A stretch of 64,000 bases of DNA from the NCBI GenBank assembly GCA_043228905.1, contig JBHGNT010000008.1, forward strand, positions 15,190,001-15,254,000, in the 5' to 3' direction. This document shows, one piece after another, positions 24,064-53,610 of this stretch; position 1 is the first letter of the stretch, and every line of letters starts with the position of its first letter. Source of the stretch: Azolla caroliniana (Eukaryota; Plantae; Polypodiophyta). The notes under the pieces are model-generated. The model was not told where the DNA came from, did no database searches, and saw only the letters and a list, made by a program, of their open reading frames with translations. Made by a program: the position numbers and the translations under genes.

Positions 24064-25581
24064 CTACAACTTATATAGCTCAATGACACTAAATTCATTT
24101 ATCTTGGATTTTACTTCAAGACGAGCAAAACCAACACTTTTAGCAAGATTCTCAACCTCTTCTTGGGTTCGTTCTCTACCTCCAATGGTTTGGGTAAACA
24201 TATAAAGATCCAAATGGTAACCAACACGAGCTCTCAAGTCCCGTTCGATACCCATCGGCAATATTGCATCAATTATAATGACTTTTCCATTATTCAATAA
24301 TGCCTTGTAGCAATTCTCTAATATCTTCATGCAATGTTCGTCGCTCCAATCGTGCAAAACCGTCTATGCAATGTTAAATCTTGTTAGTTTTGTGCAAAGT
24401 CATTTAGACATAAAAGAATAATAAACTTATATGAATTTATTGGTACCAATAAATTTGTTAAATTTTAGATTGTCAGTGCATATATAGTTGAGCTAAGCGC
24501 AAATAATGACATTCTAATTGTATATTTTATTCAAAATATATTGTTGGATGCATTCTCATTATTTGGGTTTTGTTAACAATGCATGAGACTATACATATTA
24601 ATTAATACGGAAGGGATTTGAACCTTCATGAAAATTGCATCAGCTTGAGGTATTTCAATAAACATGTCACCTCCCACATGCTCGATTCCTTATATCAAAA
24701 AATAGTAAAATGAAATATATCAAAATTACTTATTTTTTAGTCTTCACGAACATTTCAAATTCATTATGTATATCAAACAATAGATGTGCTTGCCATAATT
24801 GCATACCTGAATAATTTGGGGCTAGAGAAATGACATGTGGTTGGTCAAAGTTTATACCACGAATGTGGGGAAAGCGAGAGATGATCAAATGAAGTGATGA
24901 TCCATGGCCACCACCAACATCAACGAGTATATTTATATCATCGAAACACGTGGGATAAGAGTCGAGGAGGTCACGAATGGGGATAGTGCTACCATTGGCC
25001 ATAGCAGTGTTGAAGATGGAACCAAAGTGTGGATCATGTTGGCCATATTCAAAAACATCTAGACCATCGTGGGCCTTGGCGAAGGGTTGGCCACCATCAA
25101 GAACAGCCTCATGTAAGACATGCCAAGATTTAATAGTAACAGGGTCTACACAGAGTCGCAGTAGTGGTGCCAAAGAGGATCCATTCTAGACAAAATATTG
25201 GCTAACTAAGTTAAGACCATATCTTCTTGTTGGGTGCTTAGTGAAGGGATCAAGACCAATGTCCGCATGAACAACACCATGACTAGTCACCACTCTCAAA
25301 AGTCTATCTAATGCTACGGAAACTCTTATATTGGCATCTGGTACGACACTACTACTCATTCGTGACACTATTTCTTCGACTGAATATAACCCTCGTTCCA
25401 TACCCTCCTCCTTTTCTATATCTGCATTTGCCATGACATCAAAGACTTTCAATTTTATGAGTGTGTTAATGGCCATGGGCAAACAACACAATAAGCTCAA
25501 TTCTACTCCCCTCAACCATGCTTCATTTTCCACTTCCTCACCCATCACCCCAAGCATCGACTCATTAACAATGTCACCCAT
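24064..25581 (-). pseudogene. Class II plant O-methyltransferase (COMT-like), three exons, single in-frame TAG at codon 132
   Basis: Exons 25581-24807, 24688-24624 and 24363-24064, joined by GT-AG introns into 1140 nt. Motifs LVDVGGGHG, GINFDQPHVI, EHVGGDMF, DAIFMK, catalytic-His LHDW and GGRERT. Stop at 25188-25186 with the frame continuing beyond it. Confidence 0.92.
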
Positions 25582-25586
25582 CCTCA

Positions 25587-25621
<35 letters not shown>

Positions 25622-25927
25622 CCTCTCTAGATCTGTCTATCCCTCTCTGTTCTAGGTGACTTTCTTATATAGCCTCATCATAGGGTATTTGTCTTGTCAT
25701 ATGATATAGACTTTCATATATAATCACAAGAAACAAGATTGAGAAGAAAACCAGAAAAGTAAAACTGAGCACGCTACTACCAAACAATCAATTTCTATGT
25801 CAAGTAGGCCCAAATGAATGTAATGCTTTTGTCTTTCCTTTTTTAAATGCTAAACGACCAATTTCTATCTGAATTCCTATGCAACGTAACATGTCACACA
25901 ATAGATTCACTGCACAGAAGATAAATG

Positions 25928-26718
25928 AAACACACATTAGCGTGCACATTTCTACCAAAAGAGAGAGCCAGTAATCTGCTGCAGAAGACATAGTATCAAC
26001 CAAAGCGCCTCAAAATTGTGGCTCTTAAGAGTGTCAAAACGGAGCACAGACCAACGCGAGGTTGAGAAGGAAAACCACAAACTCATACATGATTACTTAA
26101 ATTTGGAATATATTTCTTCGATGACAGGCAGAAAATTTGGAATATATTTTCTCGATCGTAGGATTATACAATGTGTGTGTATATGTGTGTTTCGTTGACA
26201 AGCGTCGGAAAAATGTAGGGAGTTTGCATCAAGAACAACCTCATGTAAGACATGCCAAGATTTAATAGTAACAGGGTCTACAGAGAGTCGAAGTAGTGGT
26301 GCCAAAGAGGATCCATTGTGAACAAAATATTGGCTAACTAAATTAAGACCATACCTTCTCGTTGGGTGCTTAGTGAAGGGATCATGACCAATGTCCGCAT
26401 GAACAACACCATGACTAGCCACCACTCTCAAAAGTCTATCTAATGATACGGAAACTCTTATATTGGCATCTGGTACGACACTACTACTCATTCGTGACAC
26501 TATTTCTTCGACTGAATATAACCCTCATTCCATACCCTCCTCCTTTTCTATATCTGCATTTGCCATCACATCAAAGATGTTCAATTTTATGAGTGTGTTA
26601 ATTGCCATGGGCAAACAACACAATAAGCTCAATTCTACTCCCCTCAACCATGCTTCATTTTCCACTCCCTCACCCATCACCCCAAGCATCGACTCATTAA
26701 CAATGTCACCCATCCTCA

Positions 26719-26751
<33 letters not shown>

Positions 26752-28042
26752 GGTCTGTCTATCCCTCTCTATTCTAGGTGACTTTCTTATATAGCCTCAT
26801 CATAGGGTAGTTGTCTTGTCATATGATATAGACTTTCATATATAATCACAAGAAACAAGATTGAGAAGAAAACCAGAAAAGGAAAACTGAGCATGCTACT
26901 GCCAAACAATCAATTTTTATGTCAAGTAGGCCCAAATGAATGTAATGCTTTTGTCTTTCCTTTTTTAAATGCTAAACGACCAATTTCTATCTGAATTCCT
27001 ATGCAACGTAACATGTCACACAAGAGATTCACTGCACAGAAGATCAATGAAACACACATTAGCGTGCACATTTCTACCAAAAGAGAGAGCCAGTAATCTA
27101 CTGCAGAAGACATAGTATCAACCAAAGCGCCTCAAAATGTGTGTGTATGTGTGTTTCGTTGACAAGAGTCGGAAAAATGTAGGGAGTTTGCATCCTACTG
27201 TGCAAAAGAGGAAAGTGTACATAAAGAGAGTCTAGATGGATGTAGCTTAATTGCTAAGGTTGCACAATGGAGACCTGAGGGTTATGGGTTCAACCCTTAC
27301 AATCTAGAGTGGCATCTACTAAATTAAGACTGAAGTGATATCTATGGAGTAATAGAGAGGTAAGCAAATTGGCTTTCGAATCTAAGACTTCGTGTACATT
27401 AATAGTGGAGTGCACCAAAAAACAACAAGGGGGGAGGAGGACATAATGGGTTTGCCATTTGGATTGGTTCGAAGACAAGTTTTTTTTTGTTTTGTTTTGG
27501 GAGGGTTTTGCCATAAGTTTTGGTTTGCTTTGGTTTGCTTGGAGTTTGGTAAGTCGTCAAAGATTTAGAAAGCAAACAAAAATTACCGAAAAAGTGAAGA
27601 GAGAGGGAGAGAGAGAGAGAGAGAGACATGTTCCAAAGATCATACAGATTGGGATGTAAATCTAGCAGATCGGGTTTCGAACTGAAGACATAGTGCACAC
27701 TAATAGTGGAGGGCAACAAAAAATAACAAGGGGGGGAGGAGGACATAATGTGTTTGCCATTTGGATTGGTTCGAAGCGAAGCTTTTTTTTTGTTTTGTTT
27801 TGGGGGGGTTTTGCCATGAGTCTTGATTTGATTTGCTTTGCTTGGAGTTTGGTAAGACGTCAAAGATTTAGAAAGCAAACAACAATTACCGAAAAAGTGG
27901 AGAGCGAGGGAGGGAGAGAGAGAGAAACATGTTCCAAAGATCATACAACTTGGGATGTATGTGCATGTGTCTTATCTCTCTAGAAAGCACGAGGTCCCCA
28001 AAACTGTTGCTTTCTATACACACACACCCACACACCACACAT

Positions 28043-28095
<53 letters not shown>

Positions 28096-28491
28096 ATTGT
28101 ATTGTGCAAAAGAGGAAAGTGTACATAGAGATAGTCCAGATGGATGTAGCTCAATTGGTAAGGTTGCCCAATGGAGACCCAAGGGCTATGAGTTGAACCT
28201 TTACAATCAAGAGTGGCATGTAGTAAATTTAGACTCAAGAGATAAGTAGGGAGTAACAGAGAGGTAAGCAAATCGGGTATCGAACCTAAGACATAGTGCA
28301 CACTAATAATGGAGAGCAACAAAAAACAACAAGGGGGGGAGGAGTACATAATGTGTTTGCCATTTGGATTGGTTCGAAGAGAAGCTTTTGTTTTGCGGGG
28401 GTTTTGCCATGAGTCTTTATTTGATTTGCTTTGCTTGGAGTTTGGTAAGACATCAAAGATTTAGAAAGAAAACAAAAATCACCGAAAAAGT

Positions 28492-28547
<56 letters not shown>

Positions 28548-29209
28548 GTGTTCCAAAGATCTTCTAGATAGGGATGTATGTGTGTGTGTCTTATCTCTCT
28601 AGAAAGCACGAGGTCCTCAAAACTCCTCCTTTCTATACAGACACACACACACACCACATGCAGAGAGAGAGAGAGTTTGAATTGTATTGTGCAAAAGAGG
28701 AAAGTGTACATAGAGATAGTCCAGATGGATGTAGCTCAATTGGACAGGTTGCCCAATGGAGACCCAAGGGTTATGTGTTGAGCCCTTACAATCAAGAGTG
28801 GCATCTAGTAAATTTAGACTCAAGAGATATGTAAGAAGTAACAGAGAGGTAAGCAAATCAGGTTTCGAACCTAAGACATAGTGCACACTATAATAGTGGA
28901 GAGCAACAAAAAACAATAAGGGGGGGAGCAGGACATAATGCGTTTGCCATTTGGATTGGTTCGAAGAGAAGCTTTTTTTTTGTTTTGTTTTGAGGGGGTT
29001 TGCCATGAGTCTTGATTTAATTTGGTCAAAGATTTCGAAAGCAAACAAAATCACTGAAAAAGTGAACACAGAGAGAGAGAGAGAGAGAGAGAAACATGTT
29101 CCAAAGATCGTACACGTTGGGATGTATGTGTGTGTCCTATCTCTTTAAAAATCATGAGGTCCCCAAAACTCCTGCTTTCTATATATACAGACACACCCAC
29201 ACACCACAC

Positions 29210-29255
<46 letters not shown>

Positions 29256-30207
29256 TGCAACCAAACAAAGGAAGTGCACAATCTAAAATATATCGATTTT
29301 CAGAAAAATAAAGAATGCATGTGTAAAGTACATACATACATATAACATATATACTTGGTTTGCGATGTTCGTTGGTGTGTTGTGCTCATTTCTTCTTCTT
29401 CTTATTAAAACAAAACAAAACGAAAAAAATAAAAATGAAGAAGAAGATCACTTAAACACACATTAGCTTGCACATTTCTACCAAAAGAGAGAGGTAGTAA
29501 TGTGCTACCGAAGACATAACATCAACTAAAGCACCTCAAAACTGTGGCTCTTAAGAGTGTCAAAACCAAGCACAAACAAATGCGAGGTTGAGAAGGAAGG
29601 CAACAAACTCAGACATGATTGCTTAAAGTTGGAATATATTTCTTCGATGACAGGCAGAAAAATTGGAACATGTTTTTTCAATGGCAAGCTTATGCAAACT
29701 GTGTGTGTGTGTGTGTGTGTGTTTCGTTGACAAACGTCGGAAAAATATAGGGAGTTGGCACTATACTATGCAAAAGAGGAAAGTGTACATAGAGAGAGTT
29801 CGGATGGATGTAGCATTTAGTAAATTAAGACGGAAGAGATATCTATGGAGTAACAGAAAGGTAAGCAAATTGGGTTTCAAACCTAAGACATAGGGCACAC
29901 TAATATTGGAGAGCAACAAAAAACAGTAAGGGGTGGAGGAGGACGTAATGGGTTTGCCATTTGGATTGGTTTGAAGAGAAACTTTTTTTTGTTTTGTTTT
30001 GGGGGGGGGTTGCCATGAGTCTTGATTTGCTTTACTTTGCTTGGAATTTGCTAAGATGTCAAAGATTTTAAAAACAAACAAAAAACACCCAAAAATGGAA
30101 GAGAGAGAGAGAGAAAGAGAGATGCCCCCAAAATTCCTGCTTATCTCTCTAGAAATCACAAGGTCCCCAAAAATCCTGCTTTTTATACACACACACACAC
30201 CCCACAC

Positions 30208-30256
<49 letters not shown>

Positions 30257-30382
30257 CAAAGTGCAACCAAACAAAGTGCACAATCTAAAGTATATCAAAT
30301 TTCAGAGAAATAAAGAAAATAACAAAAACAAAAATGAAGAATAAGAAGAAAAAGAAGATCACTGAAACACACATTAGCTTGC
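25928..30382. repeat. Complex tandem repeat (~0.55-0.9-kb units) with (GA)n and (CA)n tracts; resumes at 40823-41616
   Basis: Blocks AAAAGAGGAAAGTGTACAT, GCCATTTGGATTGGTT and AAACACACATTAGC recur at about 27205, 28108, 28693, 29772 and 41075. Confidence 0.88.
26227..26713 (-). pseudogene. Truncated tandem duplicate of the OMT exon-1 5' part (with upstream region to ~27190)
   Basis: Near-identical to 25095-25581 at offset 1132. Own nonsense codon TGA at 26527-26525 (CGA in copy 1). Breaks off at a CATC microhomology. Confidence 0.93.
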
Positions 30383-30739
30383 GAATAAAAGTATGCGAGT
30401 GGAAACACTATTATAACTAATCAGCTAGTAAAATGGTCATAGCTATCTAGTTTTTTGTGGGCAAATCATAAGGGTCATTTATGAAATTTTATGCTTTATT
30501 AGTTAAATACATGTCATTTAATTTATGAGAATGCTCAAAATTTTGAACTTTGCGGCTTAGGCATAGAGGACAAAACTGCTACTCTATTGGTACCCTTATG
30601 ACCATGCCACGACACATACCATATCGTTTGTTTTCAATATGCCTGTCACATTGCTATAGTCTGTTTGGGGGATTGCAATATAGCTCTCCTAGATGAGTGA
30701 AGAAAACTTATAGGTAAAATTGTTGCTTGGCTCTATAGT

Positions 30740-33265
30740 GTAGTAGCTAATTAGTTACATCTTAGCTAATTAGCTAAGCCGTATAAATTGTGGTAGCTAC
30801 TTAGTTGTTATGGTTCAGTAGTGTAGTAGCTAATTAGCTACAACCTAGGTATTAGCTAATTAGCCAAGATGTAAATAATTAGCTACTGCAAATCTATGGT
30901 TTAATAGCTAATTAGCTACTGCAAATCTATAGTCTAACAACTAATTAGCTATAGTGTAGCTAATTAGCTAAGCAGTATCAAAAGTGGTAGTTAATTAGCT
31001 ACTGCCATAGTTAAGAAGAATAGCTAATTAGCTACTATCATAATTAAGTAGAAAAGCTAATTAGCTACAACATCCTATAGTATAGTAGCGAATTAGCTAC
31101 TACCACACTTAAGTAGAATAGCTAATTAGCTTCGATGTAGCTAATTAGCTACTGCCAATCTAGAGTCAACATCTAATTAGCTAGCAATATCAAGAGTGGT
31201 AGCTAATTAGCTACTGCCATAATTAAGAAGAATAACTAATTAGCTAAGTTGTAGCTAATTAGTTACTCCCAATCTATAGTCTATAAGCTAATTAGCTAAG
31301 ATGTAGCTAATTAGGTAAACAATATCAAGAACGGTAGCTAATTAGCTCCTACCATACTTAACTAGCTAATTAGCTAAGATACAATAGCTAATTAGCTACT
31401 GAAGCCATAGTTAAGAAGAATAGCTAATTAGCTATTAAAGCCATAGTTAAGAAGAATAGCTAATTAGCTACTATCATAATTAACTAGAAAAGCTAATTAG
31501 CTACAACATCCTATAGTATAACAACGAATTAGCTACAATGTAGCTAATTAGCTAAGTGGTAGCTAATTAGCTACTACTACACTTAAGGAGAATAGCTAAT
31601 TAGCTACTGCCAATCTAGAGTGAACAACTAATTAGTTAGCAGTATCAAGAGTGGTAGCTAATTTGCTACTACCATAGTTAAGAAGAATAGCTAATTAGCT
31701 AAGTTGTAGCTAATTAGTTACTCCCAATCTATAGTCTATAAGCTAATTAGCTAAACAATATCAAGAATGGTAGCTAATTAGCTCCTACCATACTTAACTA
31801 GCTAATTAGCTAAGATACAATAGCTAATTAGCTACTACAGCCTATACTGTAGCAACTAATTAGCTACAATGTATTGAATTAGCTAAGTGGTAGCTAATTA
31901 GCTCCTACCATACTTAACTAGCTAATTAGCTAAGATACAATAGCTAATTAGCTACTACAGCCTATACTGTAGCAACTAATTAGCTACAATGTATTGAATT
32001 AGCTAAGTGATAGCTAATTAGGTATTGCCATAGTTAGGAAGAATAGCTAATTAGCTAAGATGTAGCAAATTAGCTAAGTGGTACCTAATTAGGTACTGCC
32101 AACCTATAGTCTAGTAGCTAATTAGCTAAGAAGTATCAAGAGTGGTAGCTAATTAGCTATTTCCATAGTTAGGAAAAATAGCTAATTAGCTAAGTGGTAG
32201 CTAATTAGCTACTGCCAACCTATAGTCTAGCAGCTAATTAGCTAAGATGTAGCCAATTAGTTAAGTGGTAGCTAATTAGCTACTACCAACCTATAGTCTA
32301 GTAACTAATTAGCTAAGATGTAGCTAATTAGCTAAGTGGTAGCTAATTAGCTATTGCCAACCTATCGTCTAGCAACTAATTAGCTAAGATATAACTAATT
32401 AGGTAAGTGGTAACTATTTAGCTACTACCAGTCTATAGTTTAGCAGCTAATTAGGTAAACAATATCAAGAGTGGTAGCTAATTAGTTACTACTATAGTTG
32501 GAAGAATAGCTAATTAGCTAAGTTGCAGCTAACTAGCTAAGTGGTAGCTAATTAGCTACTGCCAGCCTATAGTCTCGCAGCTAATTAGCTACTGCCATAG
32601 CTGGAAGAATAGCTAATTAGCTAAGATGTCGCTAACTAGCTAAGTAGTAGCTAATTAGCTACTGTCAACCTATAGTCTAGCAACTAATTAGCTAAGATGT
32701 ACCTAATTAGCTAAGTGGTAGCTAATTAGCTACTCCGAGCCTATAAACTAGTGACTAATTAGCTAAACAGTATCAAGAGTGGTAGCTAATTAGCTACTAC
32801 CATAGTTGGAAGAATAACTAATTAGCTAAGTTGTAGTTAACTAGCTAAGTGGTAACTAATTAGCTACTACCAACCTATACTCTAGCAGGTAATTAGCTAC
32901 TACCATAGTTGGAAGAATAACTAATTAGCTAAGTTGTCGCTAACTAGCTAAGTGGTAGCTAATTAACTACTGCCAATTAGCTATGACGTAGGTAATTAGC
33001 TAAGTGGTAGCTAATTAGCTACTTCCAACTTATAGTCTAACAGCTAATTAGTTATGAAGTAGCTAATTAGTTAAGCATTATCAAGAGTGATAGGTAATTA
33101 ACTACTACCATAGTTAAGAACAATAACTATTTAGCTAAGATGTAGCAGTATCGAGGAGTATCAAGAGTGGACGCTAATTACCTACCATGTAGCTAATTAG
33201 CTACCATGTTTAGAATTCAACTAAGGTCATAGAAAAACACAAGAGAAGCCACTAATTAGCTGACA
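30740..33265. repeat. Array 1 of palindrome TAGCTAATTAGCTA with short recurring spacers
   Basis: Roughly 100 copies (estimated, not counted). Spacers include AGATG, AGTGG, CTGCCATAGTTAAGAAGAA and AACAGTATCAAGAGTGG. An exact 120-bp higher-order repeat lies near 31780-32010. Confidence 0.95.
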
Positions 33266-33293
33266 TGTTGTAGAATCTCGTGGATTAAGGAGG

Positions 33294-34900
33294 TTGCATG
33301 AGGTGTCTGGTGCCGATGACGCCATAACTGATGAGGAGATAGTTGGCAACGTGGTTGAAAGTAAGAGTCCTGCTATCACATCTCCTTCAGATCAACTCCA
33401 CCCTATTCTTTTGGAAGATTGTTCTGAATTAGGCAACGTTGTGAAAAGCCATGAAATATTGGAAACAATATGTAAATATGAGGTTCATAACAACACTGTT
33501 TTTGAACACTTGATGCAACATTTCTTTGAATCACAAAACCTTGATTCAAGCCCACTGAGCCCAATTGCTGATGACGTCCCACCAGATCCCACTATACTTG
33601 AAAAGCTATCGCAAGACACAGCTAATGTGCAAGCCGTTGTTGAGGCAATGGAAATGTTGTTGGAGGAGGACACACTTGCGCAATGGATGAAAGAAGCAAG
33701 GCTAAATGGACAACCGACTAGAAAAAGGCTGAAGAAGGGGCCACAATCGGGGGCAAGACCAGTTACTCAATCAAGGGGCTCTTGAATTTGAGCTAATTAC
33801 TACCAATTAGTGATTAGTGGGATATGATTGTTAGCTATTTTCCTAGAAAATTATGAAGATGCCCTATGGTCTATTTGAACAAGTAGCACCTCATATTGGT
33901 TGTTGATTGATCCACATTATGTAATGGAACTCTATGATGGATATTAAGGTAATATTATTATTTTGTTGCAGAACATTTCATGTTCATTATGTTGTTTTGT
34001 GACACTGTTAGCCACTTTGTGAATGTGAATATGTTGGTGTTTTCTGATGTTGCAGAGTCTAAAGGGTTTGAATCTATTGCTCCTAAGGCCGATGGTAGTG
34101 TGGAAACTGTTGATGTTGTTGCATGTTTAGATGATCTAATTTTGCAGGTAGATGGAGCATGTGATACGAGTGGGCTGATATCGACTAGAGAAGTATCTAC
34201 ATGCGACACGGTCGATTATACAAGAACAAAATAGTGTGAAGCCAGACCTAATGACTACACAAGAGCAAAACAAGGTGAAGCCAAACCCAAAGACACAGTC
34301 GACCAGGGATTTGAAGAGGAAAAGGACACCAATTGTGTTGACAGAACCCGAGTTGTTCGAAATTGATTGTGTGCTACTAATACTTGGGGTAAGAGAGGCT
34401 CAGTTGTAGGAATGGAAACCTAAACAATTAGAAGATGAAAGAAGAGTCTTGATCTTGGAGCTTGATAAAGTCCTGATGAGTGTGCGATATATGACACCAA
34501 GGAGGGCCGCGAATCAATTTCTAGAGTGGGTTGTGCAATACTTTGATTTTTTTATTTGGAGTGAAAAACCACGTTCATATGTTTGGAAGTGTGTAGAAAA
34601 ATTCTTTCTAAAGTGACGACAACACTTCAAGGGTCAATGGACACGAGAAAGATGTGAGCAGTAGGATATTGCAAGATTCAAAAGACTTTTTGATTTTTGG
34701 GATATACCTTGCCCGAATAAAATGCCGACAATACATTGATTGTGGATACAGAACATTTCCGGCATTACTACAACCTTCGCAGATGCTGTCTCATTGTACC
34801 TGATGAAATGCCTAATAACTACTTGGTGAAAACATTGAGCTGCCAATTAACTGCATGGTTATGGACACTATATTGAGCTTGGTATGCAAATCACATATGT
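33294..34900 (+). pseudogene. Decayed accessory gene: acidic N-terminal ORF plus FCP1/NIF (HAD-fold) phosphatase-like domain
   Basis: ORF 33294-33785. From 34443: RVLILELDKVLMSV...PRRAANQFLEWVVQYFDFFIWS...YV...WTRERC...FKRLFDFW, then after a frameshift NTLIVDT...N...CLIVP. This follows the FCP1-homology motif order. Joining the segments into one gene is inference. Confidence 0.6.
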
Positions 34901-35389
34901 AGAGAAGTTCCACTGACCACCAAGAGCTTAGCTATTTATAGGCACTTTGTAGACATTGCCAATGGTGTATTATAAATATGTAATTTGATGACTGATTAAT
35001 CAATGAAGAATTAAATCGCTTGTTTTAAGTAAATTATCTAGTAACTATGTAATTTTAAAATAGGTCATAATTTGATTTATGTTTTCATGTTGCTGTTTGT
35101 TCTCAAAATGGCAAATTGTTTGAACTTGTACATGGTTCACTTGAGAGTAAAAAAACCATTGCCAAAATATATTCCATGCAGTATAATCGTCATTATGCAC
35201 ATTGAACAGACACTAAAACTCAAAGTGGCAATAAGTAAAACTGATTGTAATCAATACACATTTAACAAACAGAATTTTATTAAGAAACATAAACAAAAAA
35301 AAACTCCCAAACAATTTAATTAAACTGTTTTTTTGCAATACAACTACTTTGTCCACTTTACAAGAAAACTGGTATGATCTCCTTGTAGC

Positions 35390-35893
35390 TGTTAGGAAAC
35401 AGGTCCCTCCGAATGGGAAGTGAGAAGAACCGTGTTGATAAGCAACTCGGCCGAGGCCAAAACCGGAAATCGTGGAGATAGCCAACACAGAAGGCTAAAC
35501 TTGTAAATAGTCGAAAGGTTACATTAGTATGTAAGTACTTAGGGCAATCATGTTAGATAAGTGCATTATTGTAAAAGCTACCGACGACGAGGTCACTGCC
35601 TTTGTAACTGTGAGAGAAAACGAGTGGGAGTGAAAGCGTGTGAGCTCCATAGCCACCTGTTGGCGAAGCAAGATCTCGAGGTCGTTGCCTCTAAGATCTC
35701 TGATTGTATTCCTTTCTCTCATAGTGTTCTGTTTTGGAGTTTGTGGACTCCACGTGGTTTTTTTCCCAGTTCGGGTTTCCACATTAAAATCTGTGTCATT
35801 CTCAGTTTCTATATTCTATTTTTCCTTTCCATTAGATTGACTATTATTCCGCACACGTACAACCAGTTGTGGCCGGCAACAATTTTAACTTCA
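35390..35893 (+). mobile_element. Copia solo LTR inside the DNA transposon
   Basis: TGTTAGGAAAC...CTTCA with TSD GTAGC (35385-35389 and 35894-35898). Contains the GGTTTTTTCCC...GGGTTTCCAC block shared with the other copia LTRs. Confidence 0.88.
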
Positions 35894-35899
35894 GTAGCT

Positions 35900-38800
35900 A
35901 CAAATTCAATGGCATACTTTTGTAAATACATTCATACACATTAGCACTAACTGTGTATAAATCTGAGCAACTATTGTATTGCAACATCGGGACGTTGATG
36001 CACCTCACCAAATGAGACTACATGTACTCTACTGATTTGTCTTCTAAAAGCCTATACACATAATCATAATAATCTAGTCTTGCATAAAAAATACCTTTGA
36101 TGTAGAATGTCCCGACATATACAAAATTTCCCCAATCATCTACAATATTCTGTGTTGCACATTGTTTACGAACCATGCACTTCAATATATAGAAATCAAC
36201 ACCCTCTGATTTGTCTTCTTCTACATTTACAACGAAATTATTCCCAACGTTTATGACATCACTCAGAGTATCTCCACAACCTTGATATGTGAAGTCAACA
36301 TTGTTTTCTGTTTTTCCATCCGCTCGGTCCTTATCATTCTATGTATGGTACTCCCAATTCTGAATATATGCTTTGTTTAATCAATACCTCCAATTTCCCT
36401 GCACACAACGGAAGCAAAAACAAGTTAATTCTCTAACCGCAATACAATGACCATCCAACCTAGAATAACCCCAAACAACATGGAGAGATCACAATTTGGG
36501 AATTCCTTGGCACTCCCAGGTCTTCTCCCTATTTACTTCATCTATCTTCACTTCCCAAAATTCACGTTTGATATCTTAGACTTGAGAGGAATAAACACTA
36601 GTTGCACTCGTCCCTGCTCCATCATGTTCACCTTTACCATGGCCAGACCCAAAAAGATTCCATCTCATCTCCAAACCTGTTACAGAAGGATACCTCCCAA
36701 CAAAATAAAATGGACATCTAGCCTTTCGTTTATGACGTAGCTCCATTAGACTAGACCCAATATTGAGTAAGCTCCAAACGTTGACATAATAACCATTGCC
36801 AATGTAACTTAAAACAATGTTGGACAAACAAGGTATCATGCTTCTAATCATCAGAAATAAAAAAATGAATTACTTTCTTAACATCATCTGAAACTCGAAA
36901 ATATGTTATGTGCATTGAACACCAACGCATGGATTGAATTTTATTATGCTGCTTGAAAGTATAATTCTCTACGAAATCTCCTACTGAGTCTACTACATCA
37001 TTTGGAAAATCATATTTGCAAGTCTTAAACTGATGGGCTTGCCATGAATAAATGAAGTTGTGTTTAATGAACTTTCCTAGAGATACTATAAATAAAGAAA
37101 CCAAATCCCTTGGTTTAAGTGACTTCCTAACTAGATCCTTTATTTTACACACCTTTCCTTCAAAATTGGTGTCCATAGACTCAAAAACTTGATAGAGATT
37201 AATGTTTCACAACTCAACTCTTTTGGACACCACCTAAATCTACGAGGACCACAATCTTGACATAAACCCATACGACACATTTATGATTGTGGAAGATAGC
37301 CTCAGATTCTCTCAAACACAATACTGAATCTAAAAGACCACTCATGGAAGAGATAACATGCACTATGATTTACAGTGCTCTTGCAGGCTAGATCCACCAA
37401 TTGGCCATTCTCAAGTGCAGACTACATCGTCTAGGGAGGAGCTATTGTGACGTAGTAGATTAACAGATTCCTTGAGAAAACCCATTTGTACATGGTAAAT
37501 GCAACACCAGAGTATTGATCCTTTAAGCGTCTCACAAAGTGTGGCTTAAGAGACTCGAATGTTCGTAGTTGAACTTTGATATTTGGATGCATTCGCTTGA
37601 ACCTAATAAATAAATCAACTTTCGTAATAAAAAGGGAGTCCGGTGAGTATAAAAAATGTGCCCTAATGTAGCTAGTTAGATATAGCTAATTAGCTATTGA
37701 CTATAGCTAATGAGCTACCTCAATAGCTAGCTCTTGACATAGCTCATTAGCTATTGCCAGTAGCCAATTAGCTATTAAGAGTAGCTAATTAGATACTGAC
37801 TGTAGGTAATTAGCTATTAAGAGTAGGTAATTAGCCATTGACTATAGTTAATTAGCTATTAAGAGTAGCTAATTTACAATTGACAATAGCTAATTAGCTA
37901 ATGACATAGCTAGTTAGTTATTGCCAGTAACTAAATAGCTATTGACAATATCTAATTAGCTACCTTAATAATTAGCTAATTAGCTGATAAGTGCTAAGTT
38001 TACTATTGGCAATAGTTAAATAGTTCTTAACAGTAGCTACTTAGTTATGGTTATATTCTGAGGTAGTTAATTAGCTGATAATAACTTAGTTTAGTATTGG
38101 CAATAACTATTTATCTATTACCATTAGCTAGTTAGCTATGGTCATATTCTAAGATAGCTAATTAGCTATTGTGGTAGCTAATTAGTTGCTACACCAGTAA
38201 CTAGTTAGCTATGATCATATTCTGAGGTAGCTAATTAAATACCACAATAGCTAATTAGCTATCTCAAAATATGACCATAGCTAATTAGCTACCACAATAG
38301 CTAATTAGCTACCTTAGAATATGACCATAGCTAATTAGCTACCACAATAGCTAATTAGCTACCTCAGAATATGACCATAGCTAACTCGCTAATGGTAATA
38401 ACTAAATATCTATTGCCAATACTAAACTAAGCTATTATTAGCTAATTCGCTAGTTAGCTATGGTCATATTCTGAGTTAGCTAATTAGCTATTGTGGTAGC
38501 TAATTAGCTGATAATAGCTTAGTTTAGTAATGGCAATAACTATTGAGCTATTACCATTAGCTAGTTAGCTATGGTCATATTCTGAGGTAGCTAATTAGCT
38601 ATTGTGGTAGCTAATTAGCTATGGTCATATTCTGAGATAGCTATTTAGCTATTGTGGTAGCTAATTAACTGCTACACTAGTAACTAGGTAGCTATGCTCA
38701 TATTCTGAGGTAGCTAATTAGCTATTGCGGTAGCTAATTAGCTGATAATAGCTAAGTTTAGTATTGGCAATAACTATTTAGCTATTACCAGTAGCTAGTT

Positions 38801-39400
38801 AGCTATGATCATATTTTTAGGTAGCTAATTAGCTATGGTCATATTCTGAGTTAGCTAATTAGCTATTGTGGTAACTAACTAGGTGATAATAGCTAAGTTA
38901 GGTATTGTCAATCGCTATTTAGCTATTACCAGTAGCTAGTTAGCTATGGTCATATTCTGAGGTAGCTAATTAGCTACTGGTAATAGCTTAATAGATATGG
39001 TTATACTCTGAGATAGCTAATTAGTTGATAATAGTTAAGTTTGCTATTGTCAATCGCTATTGAGCTATTACCAGTAGCTAGTTAGCTATGATCATATTCT
39101 AAGATAGCTAATTAGCTAACTAACTAAGCGTAAAAATCAAAACAAAAGTTGACATAAATGTAAATACCTAAGGTACATCAAGAAGATGAATGGGATATTC
39201 CTCGTATTGACTCGTTCCAACACGTTTCCTACATAAATCCTTCTTATTAGGTGAAATCCTACTCTCATTAGTCCAAAATATGGTGATTATATCCTTGATT
39301 TTTGATGTTATGGGTGTCATTGGCTTACATCTTGTTGTTAGCTTTAGCAAACTAATTCCTTCACCACTTGAAATTATTTGGTTCATTGTATTGTACACAA
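35900..39400 (-). pseudogene. Sola2-like DDD transposase, decayed, with the second palindrome array in a putative intron
   Basis: Ordered motifs SRISPNKKD, FESLKPHFV, CCIYHVQM, HNFIYSWQ, DFVENY...IQSMRW, ISDD..HD, WV*SNG, WNLFGSGHGKGEHDGAG and RELTCFCFRC. Family assignment is from recalled motifs and needs an HMM check. Confidence 0.75.
37665..39125. repeat. Array 2 of palindrome TAGCTAATTAGCTA with a different spacer set and an internal inversion
   Basis: Spacers TTAAGAG, TTGTGG and TGGTCATATTCTGAGG. Segment ~38240-38450 carries the reverse-complement spacers CCACAA and CCTCAGAATATGACCA. Confidence 0.93.
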
Positions 39401-40119
39401 TTTTTCTACTAACACCAATTAGCTTAGACTAGACCTTTTTAAGACAAGATCATCTTTTGACCTGCTCATGGATACGAAACTATTATAGAGATTATTTACT
39501 AGTATAGATGTTATGTTTGCATTAAGATCGTCACAATCAACAAACTCCTTTATCGCTGGATCATTTAATATTCCGTAAAGTACTACCTTCTTGTCTTCAT
39601 TGCTGATGTGCTTGGTCTGAACATTGAAATAGTCTACAACCTATCTCTCTATGATAGTAGTCTCATTACTTCCATTCTCAGTGGTATTTAGACCTATATC
39701 GCAACCAATGCTATGCTTACTTTTAGTGAATGTGGCGTTTGTATCCTTCAACAATGGACAATGTTTCCTTTTTTTTTATGCCCAATACTTTCGTATCGCT
39801 TGTTGTAACCTGATAGCGTCATCCCTATCCTGGTGATCCACGAGAGGTATTGGTAAACACCCTCCTTCCCCTTTCATTTGTCTTGACATATTCATTAGTA
39901 AATTTCCACAACCAAAAGACACGTAGCTAGTTACTAAACAACTTGCAAACCAGTTATTCATAGGAGCGATCCCACCGTTGGTAAGTTTATTTTTGTTGCA
40001 GCGGAGTAATAGCTACTCAACTACCATCGGGAACGAGCTAAGATGACTATGGGCAACAACAATACACAAAATTATTCCGCAATACATAGGATAATCAACA
40101 AACGGAATAATTATTGCAA

Positions 40120-40550
40120 TCCAGGGTTGAACAGTGGCGGCGATCTAGGACCGAACAGTGGCAGCAACTGACTATAGAATGGCGGCAGTGGAGGAGTAAA
40201 ATCCGTCGGATCGAACAATGACAGATGATGCTTGGAATGCACAGTGGCGGAAACTGAGTGTAGAATGGTGGCAATGGAGGAGTGAACTCCGTTGGATCGA
40301 ATAGTGGCAACAATCCACGACCGAATAGTAGCGGCAACTGAGTGTAGAATGGCGGCAATGGAGGAGTGAACTCAATAGGAGCGAACAATCGCAGATGATG
40401 CTTGGACCGAACGGTAGCGAGAACTGAGTGTAGAATGGCAGTGATGGAGGAGTGAGCTTCGTTGGATCAAACAATGGCAAATGATGCTTGGATTGCACAA
40501 TGGCGGCAACTGAGTGTATAATAGCGGCAATGGAGGAGTGGACTCAATAG
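40120..40550. repeat. About five ~80-90-bp tandem units near the right end of the DNA transposon
   Basis: ACTGAGTGTAGAATGGCGGCAATGGAGGAGTGAACTC recurs at about 40167, 40253, 40336, 40423 and 40509. Minus-strand reading gives a repeated FTPPLPPFYTQ peptide. Confidence 0.85.
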
Positions 40551-41616
40551 GGTTTAGGAACAATGGAAGTAATCTAAGCTTGGATAGTAACAACGTGATG
40601 TGCCAATGGATCATGCATAATGGACCTAGGAATTCGGTATATAATTGACGGTGCACATATACATTTATGGTGCACGTTTATGGTGCTCATTTATATAATT
40701 AAAATATTCTAACGTTTTCATTCATGGTGCAAAAATGACTATTTATCATTGGTAGTTTTTTACATAGCTAATTAGCTATGTCAAGGACATAACTAATTGT
40801 TTCCACTTGCATGCTTTCACCTTTGCACGTTTCTATCGAAAGAGAGAGGCAGTAATTTGTTGCAGATGCCATAGCATCAACTAAAGTGCCTCAAAATTGT
40901 GGCTTTTAAGAGCGTCAAAATTGTGGCTCAGACAAACGCGAGGTTGAGAAGGAAAACCACAAACTCAGACATGATTACTTAAAGTTGGAATATATTTCTT
41001 CGATGCCTTGCAAAAAAATTGGAACATGTTTTTTCGATGGTAGGATTAAACAAAGTGTGTGTGTGTGTGTGTGCAAAAGAGGAAAGTGTACATAGAGACA
41101 GTTCGAATGGATGTAGCTCAATTGGTTAGCTTGCCAAATGGAGACCCGAGGGTTATGGGTTATGTGTTGAACCCTTACACTCAAGAGTGGCATCTAGTAA
41201 ATTAAGACTCTAGAGATATCGATGGAATAACAAAGAGGTAAGCAAATCGGGTTTCGAACCTAAGACATAGTGCACACTAATATTGGAGAGCAACAAAAAA
41301 CAATAAGCGAGGGAGGAAGACGTAATGGGTTTGCCATTGGGATTGGTTCAAAGAGAATCTCTTTCTTGTTTTGCTTTGGCGGGATTTTTGCCATGAGTCT
41401 TGATTTGATTTTCGTTGCTTGGAGTTTGGTAAGACGTTAAAGATTTAAAAAGCAAACAAAAGTCACTGAAAAAGTGAAGAAAGAGGGAGAGAGATAGAGA
41501 GAGATAGAGATAGATAGATAGAGAGATAGAGAGATAGAGAGAGAGCCAAAGTGCAACCAAACAAAGGAAGTGCACAATCTAAAATATATCAATTTTCAAA
41601 TAAATAAAGAATGCGT

Positions 41617-48300: not shown

Positions 48301-48473
48301 TACGTGACGAATCTGGCGCTGCTTCATTTACTCCTTCCATGTAGCTCCAGTATCTATGCCCCAGCAAGCACTGATGCATTTTATACAACCAGGACGCATA
48401 GTTGCTCCAGTCGAGCTTTTATGTAGAAAGCAAGCTCGCCATGCTTCTGTCCATATCCTTTCTTTTCGGTCTG

Positions 48474-48550
48474 TGTCATGAGATGGCAAGACTCGAACCC
48501 ATGACCTTATGGTATATGGGTCGAGCTCTTAACCATCTCACCATCTATTG
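48474..48550 (-). promoter_or_regulatory. tRNA-like Pol III A/B-box module at the LTR outer end (also 1901-1977 and 53622-53698)
   Basis: Minus strand reads TGGTGAGATGG (TAGTCTAATGG in element A) ... AGGTC-ATGGGTTCGAGTC with tRNA-like spacing. Confidence 0.65.
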
Positions 48551-48904
48551 TAATTCATAGAATATTATTTTCATTTATGTTTTATTATAAGAAAGTAATG
48601 TATATTCCAGATTTCTCTGGAACATTCTAGAAGCTTCAGGATTATTCCTGAGAACACTATAAAAGAAGGCACTAAGCATTATGTTGAACCAAATTGGTTC
48701 AACACCAGTCTTAAGCCTCTTAGTCGATTTGTACTTATCTTTCATATAATATAAGAGCTGCTGTCATCATCCTATCTCTCTCTCTCTCTCCTCTTCTCAC
48801 TTCCTCTCTCTCGGGAATCTTACGCAGTCCCGTCCTCTTAGTACTAATAGTACTACTCTTCTTAGTACTAATTCCATCTCTGTTTTAGTACTATTCCTGA
48901 CAGT

Positions 48905-50041
48905 TTGAACCAATCCGTTTTCTCCGAGCTACAGTGCCTAAAAGAAAAGTTTGTTGCCTTGGAACAAGAAAACCAACGGCTGATAGGGGATCTGCAACAA
49001 ATCGCTCTAGAAAAACAACAAACGCAACAACAACATGGGGAGTTAGCGTTACGGGTACAACAACTCGAAGCAGCGTTGCAACAACAAGGATCCAGTCCCC
49101 AAGGATTTCATAAAGAGCCCAAGATTGGACTTCCTGTGAAATTTGATGGAACGCGTTCGCAATTTCGGGGATTCCTTAATCAGGTACGCTTAGTCATCCA
49201 GATGCATCCTTCCCGATATCCCACTGATGCATCTCGAGTCGGCCTAATAGGCACGCTACTTAGCGGCTCAGCCTTGGCATGGTTCGCTCCGCTTCTAGAA
49301 AAACAATCGCCCCTGCTTAATAACTTTGAAGATTTTATTGGTGAGTTTAAAGCCTGCTTTGGAGACACCGACAGCATCAGGACGGCGATCAACAAGATCC
49401 GGCGATTGCGTCAAGGCGATCGTCCAGCCTCTGCCTACGCGGCGGATTTCCGCCTACTTGCTTCAGATATACCCTGGGATGATCAAGCACTAATGGAGCA
49501 GTTTCGCTATGGCTTGCGAAACGATGTCAAAGATCTACTTCTAACTTTCCCCGAAGAACCAAAGTCTCTTACGGAGGCAATCAGTCGAGCAGTTCGATGT
49601 GACAACCGCCTTTTTGAACGGCGTTCAGAACGTCAATTACAGATACCACGCTCTAGGCCAGAGCCCACTTACGCCGCAGTCGCGGCTAAACCGTTTGCAC
49701 GAGACATACCTCAAGCAAATACTTCGACACCGATGGAGATCGATACCATGCGTCGACGCGGCCCGTTATCGGAAGAAGAAAAGCAACGACGACGTGCCAA
49801 TCGATTATGCCTTTATTGCGGTGGACCAGGACATATCGCCATCAATTGTCCCCATAGGCCAAGAAGACAGGTAAATCAAATTGTCGCCTGTACTAAACCT
49901 GAGTCAATTCTTCCCTTCGGAGTGTCTGATAGTAGTAATAGTACTAATAGAGTGTCAGATAGTATTCATAGTACTAATAGCCCAAGTATCTCAAATAAAT
50001 TTGAAATCCTTAGTCAATTAGATGAAGAGTTAAACGATTGA
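48905..50041 (+). CDS. gag: Gag (coiled-coil N-terminus, capsid, CCHC knuckle); start codon uncertain
   Basis: KFDG...F...SALAWF, LRQG, QFRYGL, PMEID and CLYCGGPGHIAINCP. First in-frame ATG is only at 49202. Confidence 0.93.
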   Translation: MNQSVFSELQCLKEKFVALEQENQRLIGDLQQIALEKQQTQQQHGELALRVQQLEAALQQQGSSPQGFHKEPKIGLPVKFDGTRSQFRGFLNQVRLVIQMHPSRYPTDASRVGLIGTLLSGSALAWFAPLLEKQSPLLNNFEDFIGEFKACFGDTDSIRTAINKIRRLRQGDRPASAYAADFRLLASDIPWDDQALMEQFRYGLRNDVKDLLLTFPEEPKSLTEAISRAVRCDNRLFERRSERQLQIPRSRPEPTYAAVAAKPFARDIPQANTSTPMEIDTMRRRGPLSEEEKQRRRANRLCLYCGGPGHIAINCPHRPRRQVNQIVACTKPESILPFGVSDSSNSTNRVSDSIHSTNSPSISNKFEILSQLDEELND

Positions 50042-50084
50042 GTCCAGCCAAAATAGGAGCCATTTGGTTGGACAGCAGCCCTAG
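50029..50084 (+). promoter_or_regulatory. -1 programmed ribosomal frameshift signal
   Basis: G TTA AAC at 50029-50035 in gag phase, 6-nt spacer, then an 11-bp stem (50042-50052 with 50063-50073). The pol frame opens only at 50026. Confidence 0.8.
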
Positions 50085-53000
50085 ATCTGTACAGCCCATT
50101 AGTGGTTCCATTCCTTCCAAGCAAGTTAGCAATGTGTTCCTAGCCCAAGTCATTGTTAGTACTAAAAGTACTCCCCCAGTACCCGTCCTAGCACTTTTAG
50201 ATTCCGGAGCTAATTCCTGTTTCATGGATCGAAATTTTGCCCAAGCTTCTCAGATATCCTTAAGAAAACTTCCTTGTCCCGCATCTGTAGTGGTCATTGA
50301 TGGTCGTCCCATTGCTTCCGGGAATATTGTAGAAGAATCAGAACCCATTCAAGTTGTCCTAGGTAGTTTTGTGTGTATAATATCATTTAATATAATTAGT
50401 AGTCCAGAGCATCCCATTGTCCTAGGATTACCTTGGCTTGAGTTACATAATCCAGCCATAGATTGGAGAACAAGAGAAGTCCGATATCGACCACCCCAAG
50501 AATCAACTCGCCGAGTTTCGACCATTTCACTCCATCAACTACGCGAAGAAGGACCCAAGGAGGAAATGTTCCTATTTTCCATATCAGTACATCCTTCCAG
50601 CACTATTAAGAAGGACTCCTCAGTACAACTTCCGGCAAAATATCATCCTTATGCCGATGTATTTGACAAGGTAAAAGCCGGTACCCTTCCTCATCACCGT
50701 CCCTATGACTGTCCCATCGATTTACAACCAGGAACCGAGCCACCATGGGGACCAATTTACAACCTGTCACCCACCGAGTTAGAAGTCCTTCGAGCCTACA
50801 TAGAGGAGAACTTGGCAAGCGGGTTCATCCGTCATTCGAAATCTCCGGCCGGTGCACCCATCTTCTTTGTCAAGAAGAAAGATGGCTCACTTCGTCTTGT
50901 CGTTGATTACCGCGGATTAAATAAAGTCACCATCCGGAATAGGTATGCACTTCCTCTTATATCAAGTCTTTTAGAGCGAGTTAATGGTGCCAAGTTTTTT
51001 ACTAAAATCGACCTACGCGGAGCGTATAATCTCGTGCGGATCCGACCGGGAGATGAGTGGAAGACCGCTTTTCGCACGCGGTATGGGCATTTTGAGTATA
51101 CTGTTATGCCGTTTGGCCTAACCAATGCACCCGCAGTCTTCCAACACATGGCAAATGATATATTCAGAGACCTCTTGGATATCTGTTTGATCATTTATCT
51201 GGATGATCTGTTGATTTATTCGAAGACCCAGGAAGAGCACGACTCTCATGTACTATTAGTACTAAAGCGACTCCGCGAGAATGGTCTTTATGCCAAGCTA
51301 GAAAAATGTAGCTTTGACTGCAAGCAAGTGGAATTTCTAGGCTACGTCATCTCCTCAAAGGGCATCGCCATGGATCCAGCTAAGATCCAAACTGTACTAG
51401 AGTGGCAAATTCCACGGTCGGTACGAGATGTACAATGTTTTCTAGGTTTTGCTAACTTCTACCGTAAGTTTATACAGGATTACTCGAAGATTATTTTACC
51501 TCTCACACAACTTACGAAGAAGGGCCAAGCATTTCTTTGGTCCATTGAAGCAGATATGGCTTTTCGGCATCTTAAGAAAGCCTTTACATCAGCACCGATT
51601 CTAGCTCATGTGGATACAAGCAAACCATTCATCATGGAGGCCGACGCATCAGATTTCGCCCTCGGTAGCATCCTTTCTCAACAAGGTGATAAAGAAGAGT
51701 TGCATCCGGTGGCTTTCCATTCGCGCAAATTCGATGTCGCAGAAATCAACTACGAAATACATGACAAGGAGTTATTAGCCATCGTGGATTCATTTGTACA
51801 ATGGCGGCATTTCTTAGAGGGCTCTCCACATCAGGTCATTGTCTTCAGCGATCATAAAAATCTTGCTTATTTTCAGAACGCTCGCGTACTAAATCGACGG
51901 CAAGCTCGGTGGGCGCAATTCCTCATGCGTTTCGACTTTAAAATCACATATCGACCGGGGAAGCAGCAAGGAAAAGCAGATGCACTATCACGACGTTCAT
52001 ATCTTGCACCTCGTCCTGGTGAAGCAACATTTGATAATCAAAAGCAAGTAATCTTGGGACCAACACGATTGCACACGACGCGGATTTTTCACACCCCGAT
52101 GGATTCACGGATTACCGATGACATACGTGCAACCTTGAAGACGGATAGTTTTGCTCAAGACATCCTGGCGCACATTGATACTTCTCGGGCATCCTGTTCT
52201 CAGTCTCAACAACCAGGTATTGACTACCGACAATTCGAATATCATGATGGTTTGTTATTCTTTAAAAAGCACGTATATGTCCCCGATTGCTCCTGTCGCC
52301 TTCAAATTGTCCAACATTGTCACGACACCCATACGGCGGGACATTTCGGTAGTACTAAGACGTTGGAGCTAGTGCAGCGATCTTTTTGGTGGCCCCACAT
52401 GCGCCGTTTTGTCGACGACTACGTTCGGACCTGTGATGCTTGCTGCCGAGCAAAAATGCCACGACACCATCCATATGGCTTGTTGGAACCTTTACCAATT
52501 CCAAGTAAGCCATGGCAGTCTATTTGTCTTGATTTTATCACAGATCTGCCGGTCTCGAAAGGGTTCGATGCTATCCTAACCGTCGTCGATCGATATACGA
52601 AGATGGCACATTTTGTGCCATGTACTAAAGCTATCACTAGCGAGGAAACCGCCGCTCTTGTTATGCGTGAGGTTTTTCGGCATCATGGCCTCCCAGACAG
52701 TATTATCAGTGACCGAGGCCCGCAATTTGTCTCCAAATTTTGGCAGCATCTCTTCAAGATGCTCAAGGTCTCCTGCAACCTCTCCTCCGGCTACCATCCT
52801 CAAACCGACGGACAGGCGGAACGAACAAACCAAACGCTGGAGCAATATCTCCGGTGCTTCCTGAGTTATCAACAGGACGATTGGGCCGAGATTCTCCACT
52901 TTGCGGAGTTTGCGTATAATAATGCTATTCACTCCTCGACTCGGGTCTCCCCATTTTTCGCTTATACCGGTTTCCATCCTCGCTGGTCGGTGATCGACAC

Positions 53001-53610
53001 TCCGGAGCTACCTACCAACCCTCGTGCCGAGGATCATTTGGAGAGGCTACGCAAGATCCAGATGGATCTCTCTACTCACCTTCGTCATGCTCAACACACA
53101 CAGAAGACTTATGCGGATCGTCATCGGATTCCCTCCTCTTTTGCCATCGGAGATCGAGTATGGCTCTTACGTCGTCACATCAAGACTACTCGACCGTGCG
53201 ACAAGTTGGATTATCGACGACTCGGTCCTTTCCGTATTACGGGGAAGATTAATGACGTCACCTTCCGCCTTGATCTCCCTCCGCAGCTTCAGATACATCC
53301 GGTTTTCCATTGTTCTCTTCTTGAACCTTATAAAGCAAACACCATTCCCGATCGTGTGACACCACCGCCGCCCCCACTGGAGTTGGACGCCGGCCCGGAG
53401 TATGAAGTTGCTGCCATCCTCGATTCCAAACTTGTTCGCAACAAACTCTATTACTTGGTCGATTGGCTCGGTTATAGTCCGAGCGAACGTACTTGGGAAC
53501 CCGTCGAGAATGTTGCCAATGCACAAGATCTTCTTGCTGATTTCCACCGAAAGTATCCGGACAAACCCGGTCCGCAAGTAGCGCTGACTCGTTCCACTCG
53601 TCGTCTTTAA
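50038..53610 (+). CDS. pol: Pol (protease, RT, RNase H, integrase, chromodomain) in the -1 frame relative to gag
   Basis: LLDSGA, MPFGL, YLDD, DASDFALG, HHCC/DDE integrase and C-terminal chromodomain; 1190 codons open. Confidence 0.97.
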   Translation: MSPAKIGAIWLDSSPRSVQPISGSIPSKQVSNVFLAQVIVSTKSTPPVPVLALLDSGANSCFMDRNFAQASQISLRKLPCPASVVVIDGRPIASGNIVEESEPIQVVLGSFVCIISFNIISSPEHPIVLGLPWLELHNPAIDWRTREVRYRPPQESTRRVSTISLHQLREEGPKEEMFLFSISVHPSSTIKKDSSVQLPAKYHPYADVFDKVKAGTLPHHRPYDCPIDLQPGTEPPWGPIYNLSPTELEVLRAYIEENLASGFIRHSKSPAGAPIFFVKKKDGSLRLVVDYRGLNKVTIRNRYALPLISSLLERVNGAKFFTKIDLRGAYNLVRIRPGDEWKTAFRTRYGHFEYTVMPFGLTNAPAVFQHMANDIFRDLLDICLIIYLDDLLIYSKTQEEHDSHVLLVLKRLRENGLYAKLEKCSFDCKQVEFLGYVISSKGIAMDPAKIQTVLEWQIPRSVRDVQCFLGFANFYRKFIQDYSKIILPLTQLTKKGQAFLWSIEADMAFRHLKKAFTSAPILAHVDTSKPFIMEADASDFALGSILSQQGDKEELHPVAFHSRKFDVAEINYEIHDKELLAIVDSFVQWRHFLEGSPHQVIVFSDHKNLAYFQNARVLNRRQARWAQFLMRFDFKITYRPGKQQGKADALSRRSYLAPRPGEATFDNQKQVILGPTRLHTTRIFHTPMDSRITDDIRATLKTDSFAQDILAHIDTSRASCSQSQQPGIDYRQFEYHDGLLFFKKHVYVPDCSCRLQIVQHCHDTHTAGHFGSTKTLELVQRSFWWPHMRRFVDDYVRTCDACCRAKMPRHHPYGLLEPLPIPSKPWQSICLDFITDLPVSKGFDAILTVVDRYTKMAHFVPCTKAITSEETAALVMREVFRHHGLPDSIISDRGPQFVSKFWQHLFKMLKVSCNLSSGYHPQTDGQAERTNQTLEQYLRCFLSYQQDDWAEILHFAEFAYNNAIHSSTRVSPFFAYTGFHPRWSVIDTPELPTNPRAEDHLERLRKIQMDLSTHLRHAQHTQKTYADRHRIPSSFAIGDRVWLLRRHIKTTRPCDKLDYRRLGPFRITGKINDVTFRLDLPPQLQIHPVFHCSLLEPYKANTIPDRVTPPPPPLELDAGPEYEVAAILDSKLVRNKLYYLVDWLGYSPSERTWEPVENVANAQDLLADFHRKYPDKPGPQVALTRSTRRL

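Follow-up and report, generated by a model that had tools for sequence, protein, structure and literature searches.

The window (the whole stretch of DNA analysed here, 64,000 nucleotides of the Azolla caroliniana genome; contig JBHGNT010000008.1, positions 15,190,001 to 15,254,000) contains a degenerate Sola2 DNA transposon carrying a domain of the NIF/FCP1 fold, an identification of element and domain that is held with great confidence. The window copy is dead, with stops, a frameshift, and the 5' exons of its second gene deleted. The best explanation for it, put forward tentatively and falling a little short of probable, is that of a dead copy from a family in which the second gene is under selection and encodes a catalytically dead adaptor.

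The element belongs to an old subfamily (A) and spans positions 30,383–40,822 (10,440 bp, no strand assigned), as delimited by terminal inverted repeats (TIRs), a TTGC target site duplication (TSD), and homology to young copies of 12.2 kb. The left TIR (30,383–30,407, plus strand, 25 bp) has three mismatches to the family TIR, GGGT(A/G)AAAGCATGCGAGTGGAAACA, and the right TIR (40,798–40,822, minus strand) has two and is directly followed by TTGC, confirming that the domain lies inside a DNA transposon, as the original prediction had proposed. Exact matches to the TIR number 552 in the genome (283 + 269; control 0), and a 4-bp TSD flanks all nine copies for which both ends were located among 31 long stretches examined, window included. 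Approximately 500 bp at 35,391–35,893 (no strand assigned) are a later insertion outside the element proper, marked by a GTAGC duplication and missing from sister copies; this 5-bp duplication and the TG..CA ends are solo-LTR-like. The Sola2 insertion site itself (27,100–30,380 and 40,830–41,600) consists of repeat units of 300–900 bp with AG microsatellites.

A DNA search of the genome with the NIF segment returned 488 candidates; 40 were scored, every one of them matching at 87–100%. A family search returned 401 candidates, 150 of which were scored; host genes (SCP, CPL, TIM50, and DLNG) account for a few of the top rows, while the rest are mostly dispersed, near-equal matches with frames of 353–405 aa. 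Copies sort into subfamilies Y, B, and A, the window copy falling in the older A. Within the young subfamily, copies are 99.5–99.9% identical to one another, and the young copies studied (n = 10) share ~12.2 kb between 25-bp TIRs. These ten were chosen for open NIF frames, so that their intactness at NIF is selected; the transposase core contains a stop in three and a frameshift in one. A family-wide transposase frameshift was suspected and proved private to locus L061.

The transposase gene lies on the minus strand, where exon 2 (35,907–37,640) holds the catalytic core (DFVENY at 36,961–36,978; HGKGEHDG at 36,621–36,641) with stops and frameshifts, followed by a predicted intron with a palindrome array (37,660–39,167; 37 sites in 37,500–39,499) and a broken exon 1 (39,168–39,895; tblastn 74–86%) covering a helix-turn-helix (HTH) region. 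HTH matches were obtained for exon 1 of the young copy scanned (E 7e-4), and the gene has no match among Pfam transposase families. Compared by eye with the published Sola2 alignment, it shows the Sola2 motifs DFAENY, SDD..HD, SDG, and HGKG..DG (as given in the part of PMC3627910 available), and we accordingly class the transposase as a DDD type with Sola2 motifs, a class that rests on those motifs. The literature treats Sola as a group of DDD transposons that have 4-bp TSDs (PMC10741241, in part), and the 4-bp TSD and the size of 10–12 kb seen here agree with Sola2. The first 11 bases of the 25-bp TIR are identical to those of the Ceratodon Sola2 cluster_4006, and Table S2 of the same source assigns related clusters from mosses and ferns to Sola1, Sola2, or both (PMC12973397, available in part). 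Unlike known Sola2 elements, the present family has a second gene with a RING finger and an FCP1 fold, as well as intronic palindrome arrays; the Sola2 cargo reported in PMC3627910 is Fanzor1, and for Sola neither a NIF/PF03031 nor a zf-RING row appears in the accessible part of Table S6 of PMC12973397.

The FCP1/NIF-fold domain occupies positions 34,389–34,975 of the plus strand, with ELDK at 34,458 and the motif IV sequence DTE at 34,745. The original prediction had recognized this domain from a frame starting at 34,443, which reads RVLILELDKVLMSV exactly; all of the other peptide pieces that it quoted are present as well, with NTLIVD, N, and CLIVP shifted to a different frame by a 2-bp insertion near 34,703. 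The domain extends farther than had been described, to 34,972, and is interrupted by five in-frame stops (34,407, 34,614, 34,662, 34,718, and 34,874) before the natural stop at 34,973. A 57-aa piece of the window copy (34,443–34,613) already exceeds the curated Pfam NIF cut-off (E 7e-5; 23 versus 21.8 bits), and the intact domain of a sister copy matches at E 1.8e-8. The proposed FCP1/SCP-type HAD fold was borne out by structure prediction for a sister copy, with a pLDDT of 95.2 when modelled from a 67-row alignment (single-sequence prediction only 35). The top fold matches are all FCP/SCP (best UBLCP1, CTDNEP1, TIM50, and Scp proteins), with Z scores of 16.5 for 1t9z, which we take to be Scp1 (rmsd 2.5 over 147 residues), 16.0 for UBLCP1, and 15.4 for TIM50. 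A sequence search of solved structures found UBLCP1 alone (E 1.2).

Alteration of the catalytic DxDxT, noted at the outset for the window copy, extends to the family. Motif I reads ELDKV in 36 of 43 copies, its first position being D in just one decayed copy (DLDKV), and the second Asp of motif IV is present in 0 of 43, where the motif reads DTE; the D at +2, the motif II Ser, the motif III Lys, and the first motif IV Asp are retained. Both Asp residues of the DLDNT signature are described as essential, and TIM50 as lacking the signature (PMC9426563, in part). Since motifs I and IV are both altered, a pseudophosphatase is likely, and of the two options that had been offered (captured phosphatase or pseudophosphatase) the latter is preferred; catalytic death of the domain, judged from its motifs, is highly probable. 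The domain thus resembles the FCP/SCP proteins of PF03031 (Scp1, UBLCP1, CTDNEP1, Fcp1, and TIM50, which is without DxDx(T/V)) in fold and motif order, whereas it differs in sequence (13–19% identity), in having ELDK and DTE rather than DxDxT and DD, in its short insertion after motif I, in the lack of a visible BRCT, UBL, or dsRBD, and in being borne by a transposon. In Scp1 this insertion contributes to the CTD pocket; compared with DLNG relatives, the domain here lacks ~15 residues of it. The suggested action on the Pol II CTD is not supported, in view of these missing residues and of the best tree, in which the domain groups with the DLNG branch and not with SCP/CPL; a CTD-specific role appears doubtful on this sequence evidence.

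The second gene is convergent to the transposase. The plus strand of young copies carries two short exons, a 227-codon N-domain, a 48-codon coiled-coil-like exon, and a RING-H2-like exon, followed by a palindrome intron, an acidic exon, and the NIF exon. The window copy has lost the N-domain and coiled-coil exons upstream of RING by deletion (the N-domain exon gives no tblastn match there) and begins with a remnant of the RING-H2-like exon, not mentioned in the original prediction, at 30,551–30,715 (plus strand; two stops; tblastn 64% to the young RING exon). There follow a predicted intron at 30,716–33,273 (plus strand), with conserved GT and AG ends and an array of AGCTAATTAGCT (75 sites with at most one mismatch in 30,500–33,499), and the acidic exon with its basic tail at 33,274–33,785 (plus strand; RKRLKK at 33,720), in which an internal GTAAGA donor near 33,361 would splice to the NIF exon. 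The 5' part of that last exon is a linker (34,057–34,388, plus strand) with a KRKR patch at 34,314, frameshifted here and carrying 13-aa repeats in young copies. The number of these repeats varies among young copies (L061:6,500–6,660), giving frames of 353, 366, 379, 392, and 405 aa. All eight C3H2C3 ligands of the RING-H2-like exon are kept in the three subfamily consensuses, with the last Cys pair spaced x3; matches to RING profiles are weak (zf-rbx1 E 0.098; zf-RING_2 E 0.27; relatives E 0.008–0.013). The N-domain has no Pfam match at E values up to 10 and no Atlas assignment, so that its proposed DNA binding is conjectural. When it was examined for identity with PMD or Transposase_32, Pfam gave no match and the Atlas scores (0.75–0.76) were noise. 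Compared with the N-domains of NIF-less elements it gave an hhalign probability of 13.5% (E 0.002).

Of 10 young copies tried, six had matches for all anchors, and in five of these (the sixth has a stop) a six-intron GT-AG model of the second gene that uses the internal GTAAGA donor is open and predicts a protein of 807–833 aa, while reading through the donor gives a predicted protein of 618 aa ending in the basic tail. Splice dinucleotides are conserved at the RING donor (25/25), the acidic acceptor (30/31), the internal donor (26/28), and the NIF acceptor (22/26), although conservation of the internal donor could instead reflect coding sequence. RING and NIF are therefore probably joined in one polypeptide by the predicted splicing, and three gene models from Adiantum nelumboides join a coiled coil, RING, and NIF. 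The acidic open reading frame that had been tentatively attached to the same gene (33,264–33,782, with RKRLKK at 33,720) is present and likely does belong to it; the role given to RKRLKK as an NLS-like part of the NIF gene needs revision, as this tail likely ends the shorter isoform and a separate KRKR patch is present within the NIF exon. The 618-aa isoform, being without the FCP1 fold, would match an older two-gene Sola2 design. Two further leads were abandoned: contigs of three runs contained no splice joints, their single GT..AG joint being a 78-bp difference in repeat number, and are uninformative on expression, and an open frame of 449 aa runs across stops and introns.

Comparison of copies indicates purifying selection on the NIF domain. 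Between subfamily consensuses (built at NIF from 23 A, 10 B, and 10 Y copies, with fewer upstream), which contain no stops, dN/dS for NIF is 0.29, 0.25, and 0.35 (p 8e-7, 7e-8, and 0.007), and the other exons give 0.22–0.25 for the N-domain, 0.28–0.40 for RING, and 0.11–0.23 for the transposase core. Because the copy-versus-consensus control for NIF was 0.49–0.58 and not 1, an extra test against private mutations was made, in which fixed nonsynonymous to synonymous changes of 46:36 and 38:35 contrast with private changes of 179:43 (p 3e-5 and 6e-6). The consensus comparison and the private-mutation test thus agree in showing NIF to have been selected in the transposing lineage. Relative to subfamily Y, dN/dS is 0.41–0.46 for the linker (34,057–34,388); towards its 3' end the acidic exon is only weakly constrained, at 0.56–0.63, which is not significant. 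With a NIF match found, and with many copies in which NIF is under selection, neither observation that had been named as damaging to the original prediction (no NIF/HAD match, or a segment confined to this copy and evolving neutrally) was made.

The origin of the domain was traced through 80 related transposase loci from metagenome contigs, 25 of which have at least 2 kb of sequence behind the transposase. A convergent NIF occurs at two of the 80 (L097 and L100, both DLNG, with 50–56% transposase identity), the first being the only one of the 25 loci with such flanks to contain NIF, as the flank of L100 is shorter. In a 33-row transposase tree, the ELDK family, L097, and L100 fall within a single 8-row clade (support 99/98). 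Within this clade, 2.4 kb at L094 (67% transposase identity) contain no NIF, so that an element can do without the fold, and the flanks of four rows are too short to tell whether NIF is present. More distant Sola2 elements (L106, L118, L138, L153, and L169) carry a RING gene convergent to the transposase, in most cases with an acidic-basic tail, and no NIF, and in L133 the RING gene is on the transposase strand.

A profile search found 112 proteins; named homologues of the second gene are from Adiantum and Ceratopteris. A 65-row domain tree, restricted to matches covering at least 115 profile positions and biased in its sampling towards the query, places the ELDK family, both transposon-linked loci, and fern gene models in a 27-row clade (100/99), which sits within a wider DLNG group, apart from host DLNG genes. 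The first residue of motif I varies among D, N, and E across this clade, as expected if catalysis is not selected, and sister Ceratopteris proteins have lost the motif differently (EVEV/DTT). The nearest branch in the best tree is that of the DLNG-type FCP1-homology proteins found in plants, fungi, and protists (presumably the C1271.03c-like proteins), from which the transposon-linked set differs in forming its own clade with further eroded motifs. Capture from the genome's own DLNG gene was rejected (L038; p-AU 0.001), whereas grouping with SCP/CPL was not (p-AU 0.099), in a test whose outgroup fragments were short and long-branched. On these trees the domain is best read as one old capture from the DLNG branch and not a fragment of a host CTD phosphatase, and the simplest history would be a two-gene Sola2 with a RING accessory gene, a single gain of a DLNG-type domain, and erosion to ELDK/DTE. 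The rejected donor is a single-exon DLNG NIF gene whose sole two matches in the genome are 99% identical copies 27 kb apart (L038 and L039; G000:C15:234,844 and 261,661). A very old relic of the transposon NIF (L090:3,739–4,005, minus strand; 35% identity) lies downstream of a host SCP-type gene. P0217 and P0218 combine a host-type DLNG NIF with an apparent Ulp1-type protease region (judged by eye) typical of Mutator-like elements, a possible second, independent capture.

The AGCTAATTAGCT palindrome occurs at 113 sites in the window element and at none elsewhere in the window, and at 139 sites in a young copy. The sites lie nearly all in the introns of both genes, with few beside both TIRs (3 of the 139 subterminal), and array length varies freely among copies. 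Under the adaptor explanation, a dimer would bind these arrays through the N-domain, the dead FCP1 fold would grip a host nuclear protein, and the RING would ubiquitinate that protein, which would keep array-bearing copies transcribed or transposition-competent, at least transiently. A counter-silencing role for such an adaptor is conceivable from the combined analyses, at a strength somewhat below that of the adaptor explanation as a whole. More speculative still, and improbable as it stands, is the specific form in which the second protein would be a sequence-targeted ubiquitin ligase that uses a disarmed CTD-phosphatase fold as substrate receptor and removes a host silencing or transcription-control factor from element DNA, by a counter-silencing strategy that would be unrelated to VANC. 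Private C-to-T changes in young copies amount to 4.6, 6.5, and 0.27 per 1000 in CG, CHG, and CHH contexts, respectively, and this CG/CHG-biased decay implies that inserted copies were methylated, which argues against a lasting, VANC-like protection.

The closest rival to the adaptor model, though itself unlikely, is that the second protein is a transposition helper resembling TnpA of CACTA elements, which would bind palindromes near the ends and inside the element and help to assemble the transposase complex or set its timing; the RING and FCP1 fold would mediate interaction or turnover, perhaps keeping the transposase itself in check. Palindromes that adjoin both TIRs, the convergent RING gene of the five distant Sola2 elements, and the methylated appearance of young copies all fit such a helper, whereas the scarcity of subterminal sites, the others being intronic, and the freedom of array length to vary do not. 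In another rival, the NIF exon would be a separate third gene with its own ATG (MLVFSD, 34,031), not joined to RING. This arrangement is distinctly less probable than a helper. In its favour, many copies have an open frame of 353–405 aa leading up to the stop, the sequence around the ATG is conserved, and the end of the acidic exon resembles that of the last exon in NIF-less elements; against it, the GTAAGA donor (26/28) and AG acceptor (22/26) are matched in phase, the spliced model is open, and fern gene models join the parts.

Two readings concern the domain itself. That it is an active, non-canonical phosphatase using Glu and the remaining Asp is very unlikely: ELD is conserved and the +2 D, motif II Ser, motif III Lys, and first motif IV Asp are kept, but Glu occupies the nucleophile position, motif IV reads DTE, and the Ceratopteris sister proteins lost the motif in another way. 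Least probable of all, and refuted for the family, is a neutral passenger recently captured from a host gene in the manner of Pack-TEs. The window copy itself does decay neutrally, with stops and a frameshift; against this stand the purifying selection found in two tests, the position of NIF at the same place in Sola2 elements with 50–56% transposase identity, and the rejected grouping with the genome's own DLNG gene (p-AU 0.001).

The adaptor model has partial parallels in other known systems. VANC binds tandem motifs in the introns of VANDAL elements and itself contains tandem peptide repeats (PMC5735166, in part), and the present family shares with VANDAL an element-encoded accessory protein with such repeats and intronic tandem arrays that vary between copies. 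It differs in its superfamily, in its palindromic motif, and in its RING and FCP1 fold, and Pfam scans gave no sequence link to VANC domains. A transposon-related domain is likewise combined with a phosphatase fold in silencing control in the PMD-PP7 fusions and MAIN/MAIL1/PP7L; those, however, are host genes that promote silencing and have the PPP fold (PMC7156037, in part), and the N-domain here has no PMD match. Few counter-silencing or helper proteins of plant transposons have been tested (VANDAL and one CACTA microRNA are named in the part of PMC12973397 available). Catalogues of Sola elements from mosses and ferns exist, and accessory genes are already known in plant transposons (PMC12973397 and PMC13547354, both in part). 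No description of a transposon gene combining RING and an FCP1 fold was found in the literature searched, and Repbase entries may already note the open reading frame.

This little-studied superfamily offers a conserved accessory gene in hundreds of copies, young intact members, and a candidate target motif, through which transposon persistence in a seed-free plant becomes directly testable. The stepwise catalytic loss from DLNG/DD to ELDK/DT in a fold still under selection would be a case of an enzyme becoming an adaptor. Gene models in ferns that carry the annotation 'FCP1 homology domain protein' are likely transposon genes, which would inflate counts of the phosphatase family.

Elsewhere in the window, a plant O-methyltransferase gene (24,067–26,758, minus strand; Methyltransf_2 and Dimerisation matches) has part of its first exon duplicated at 26,096–26,758, and a young Ty3/Gypsy element with a chromodomain and identical LTRs lies at 48,473–53,920.
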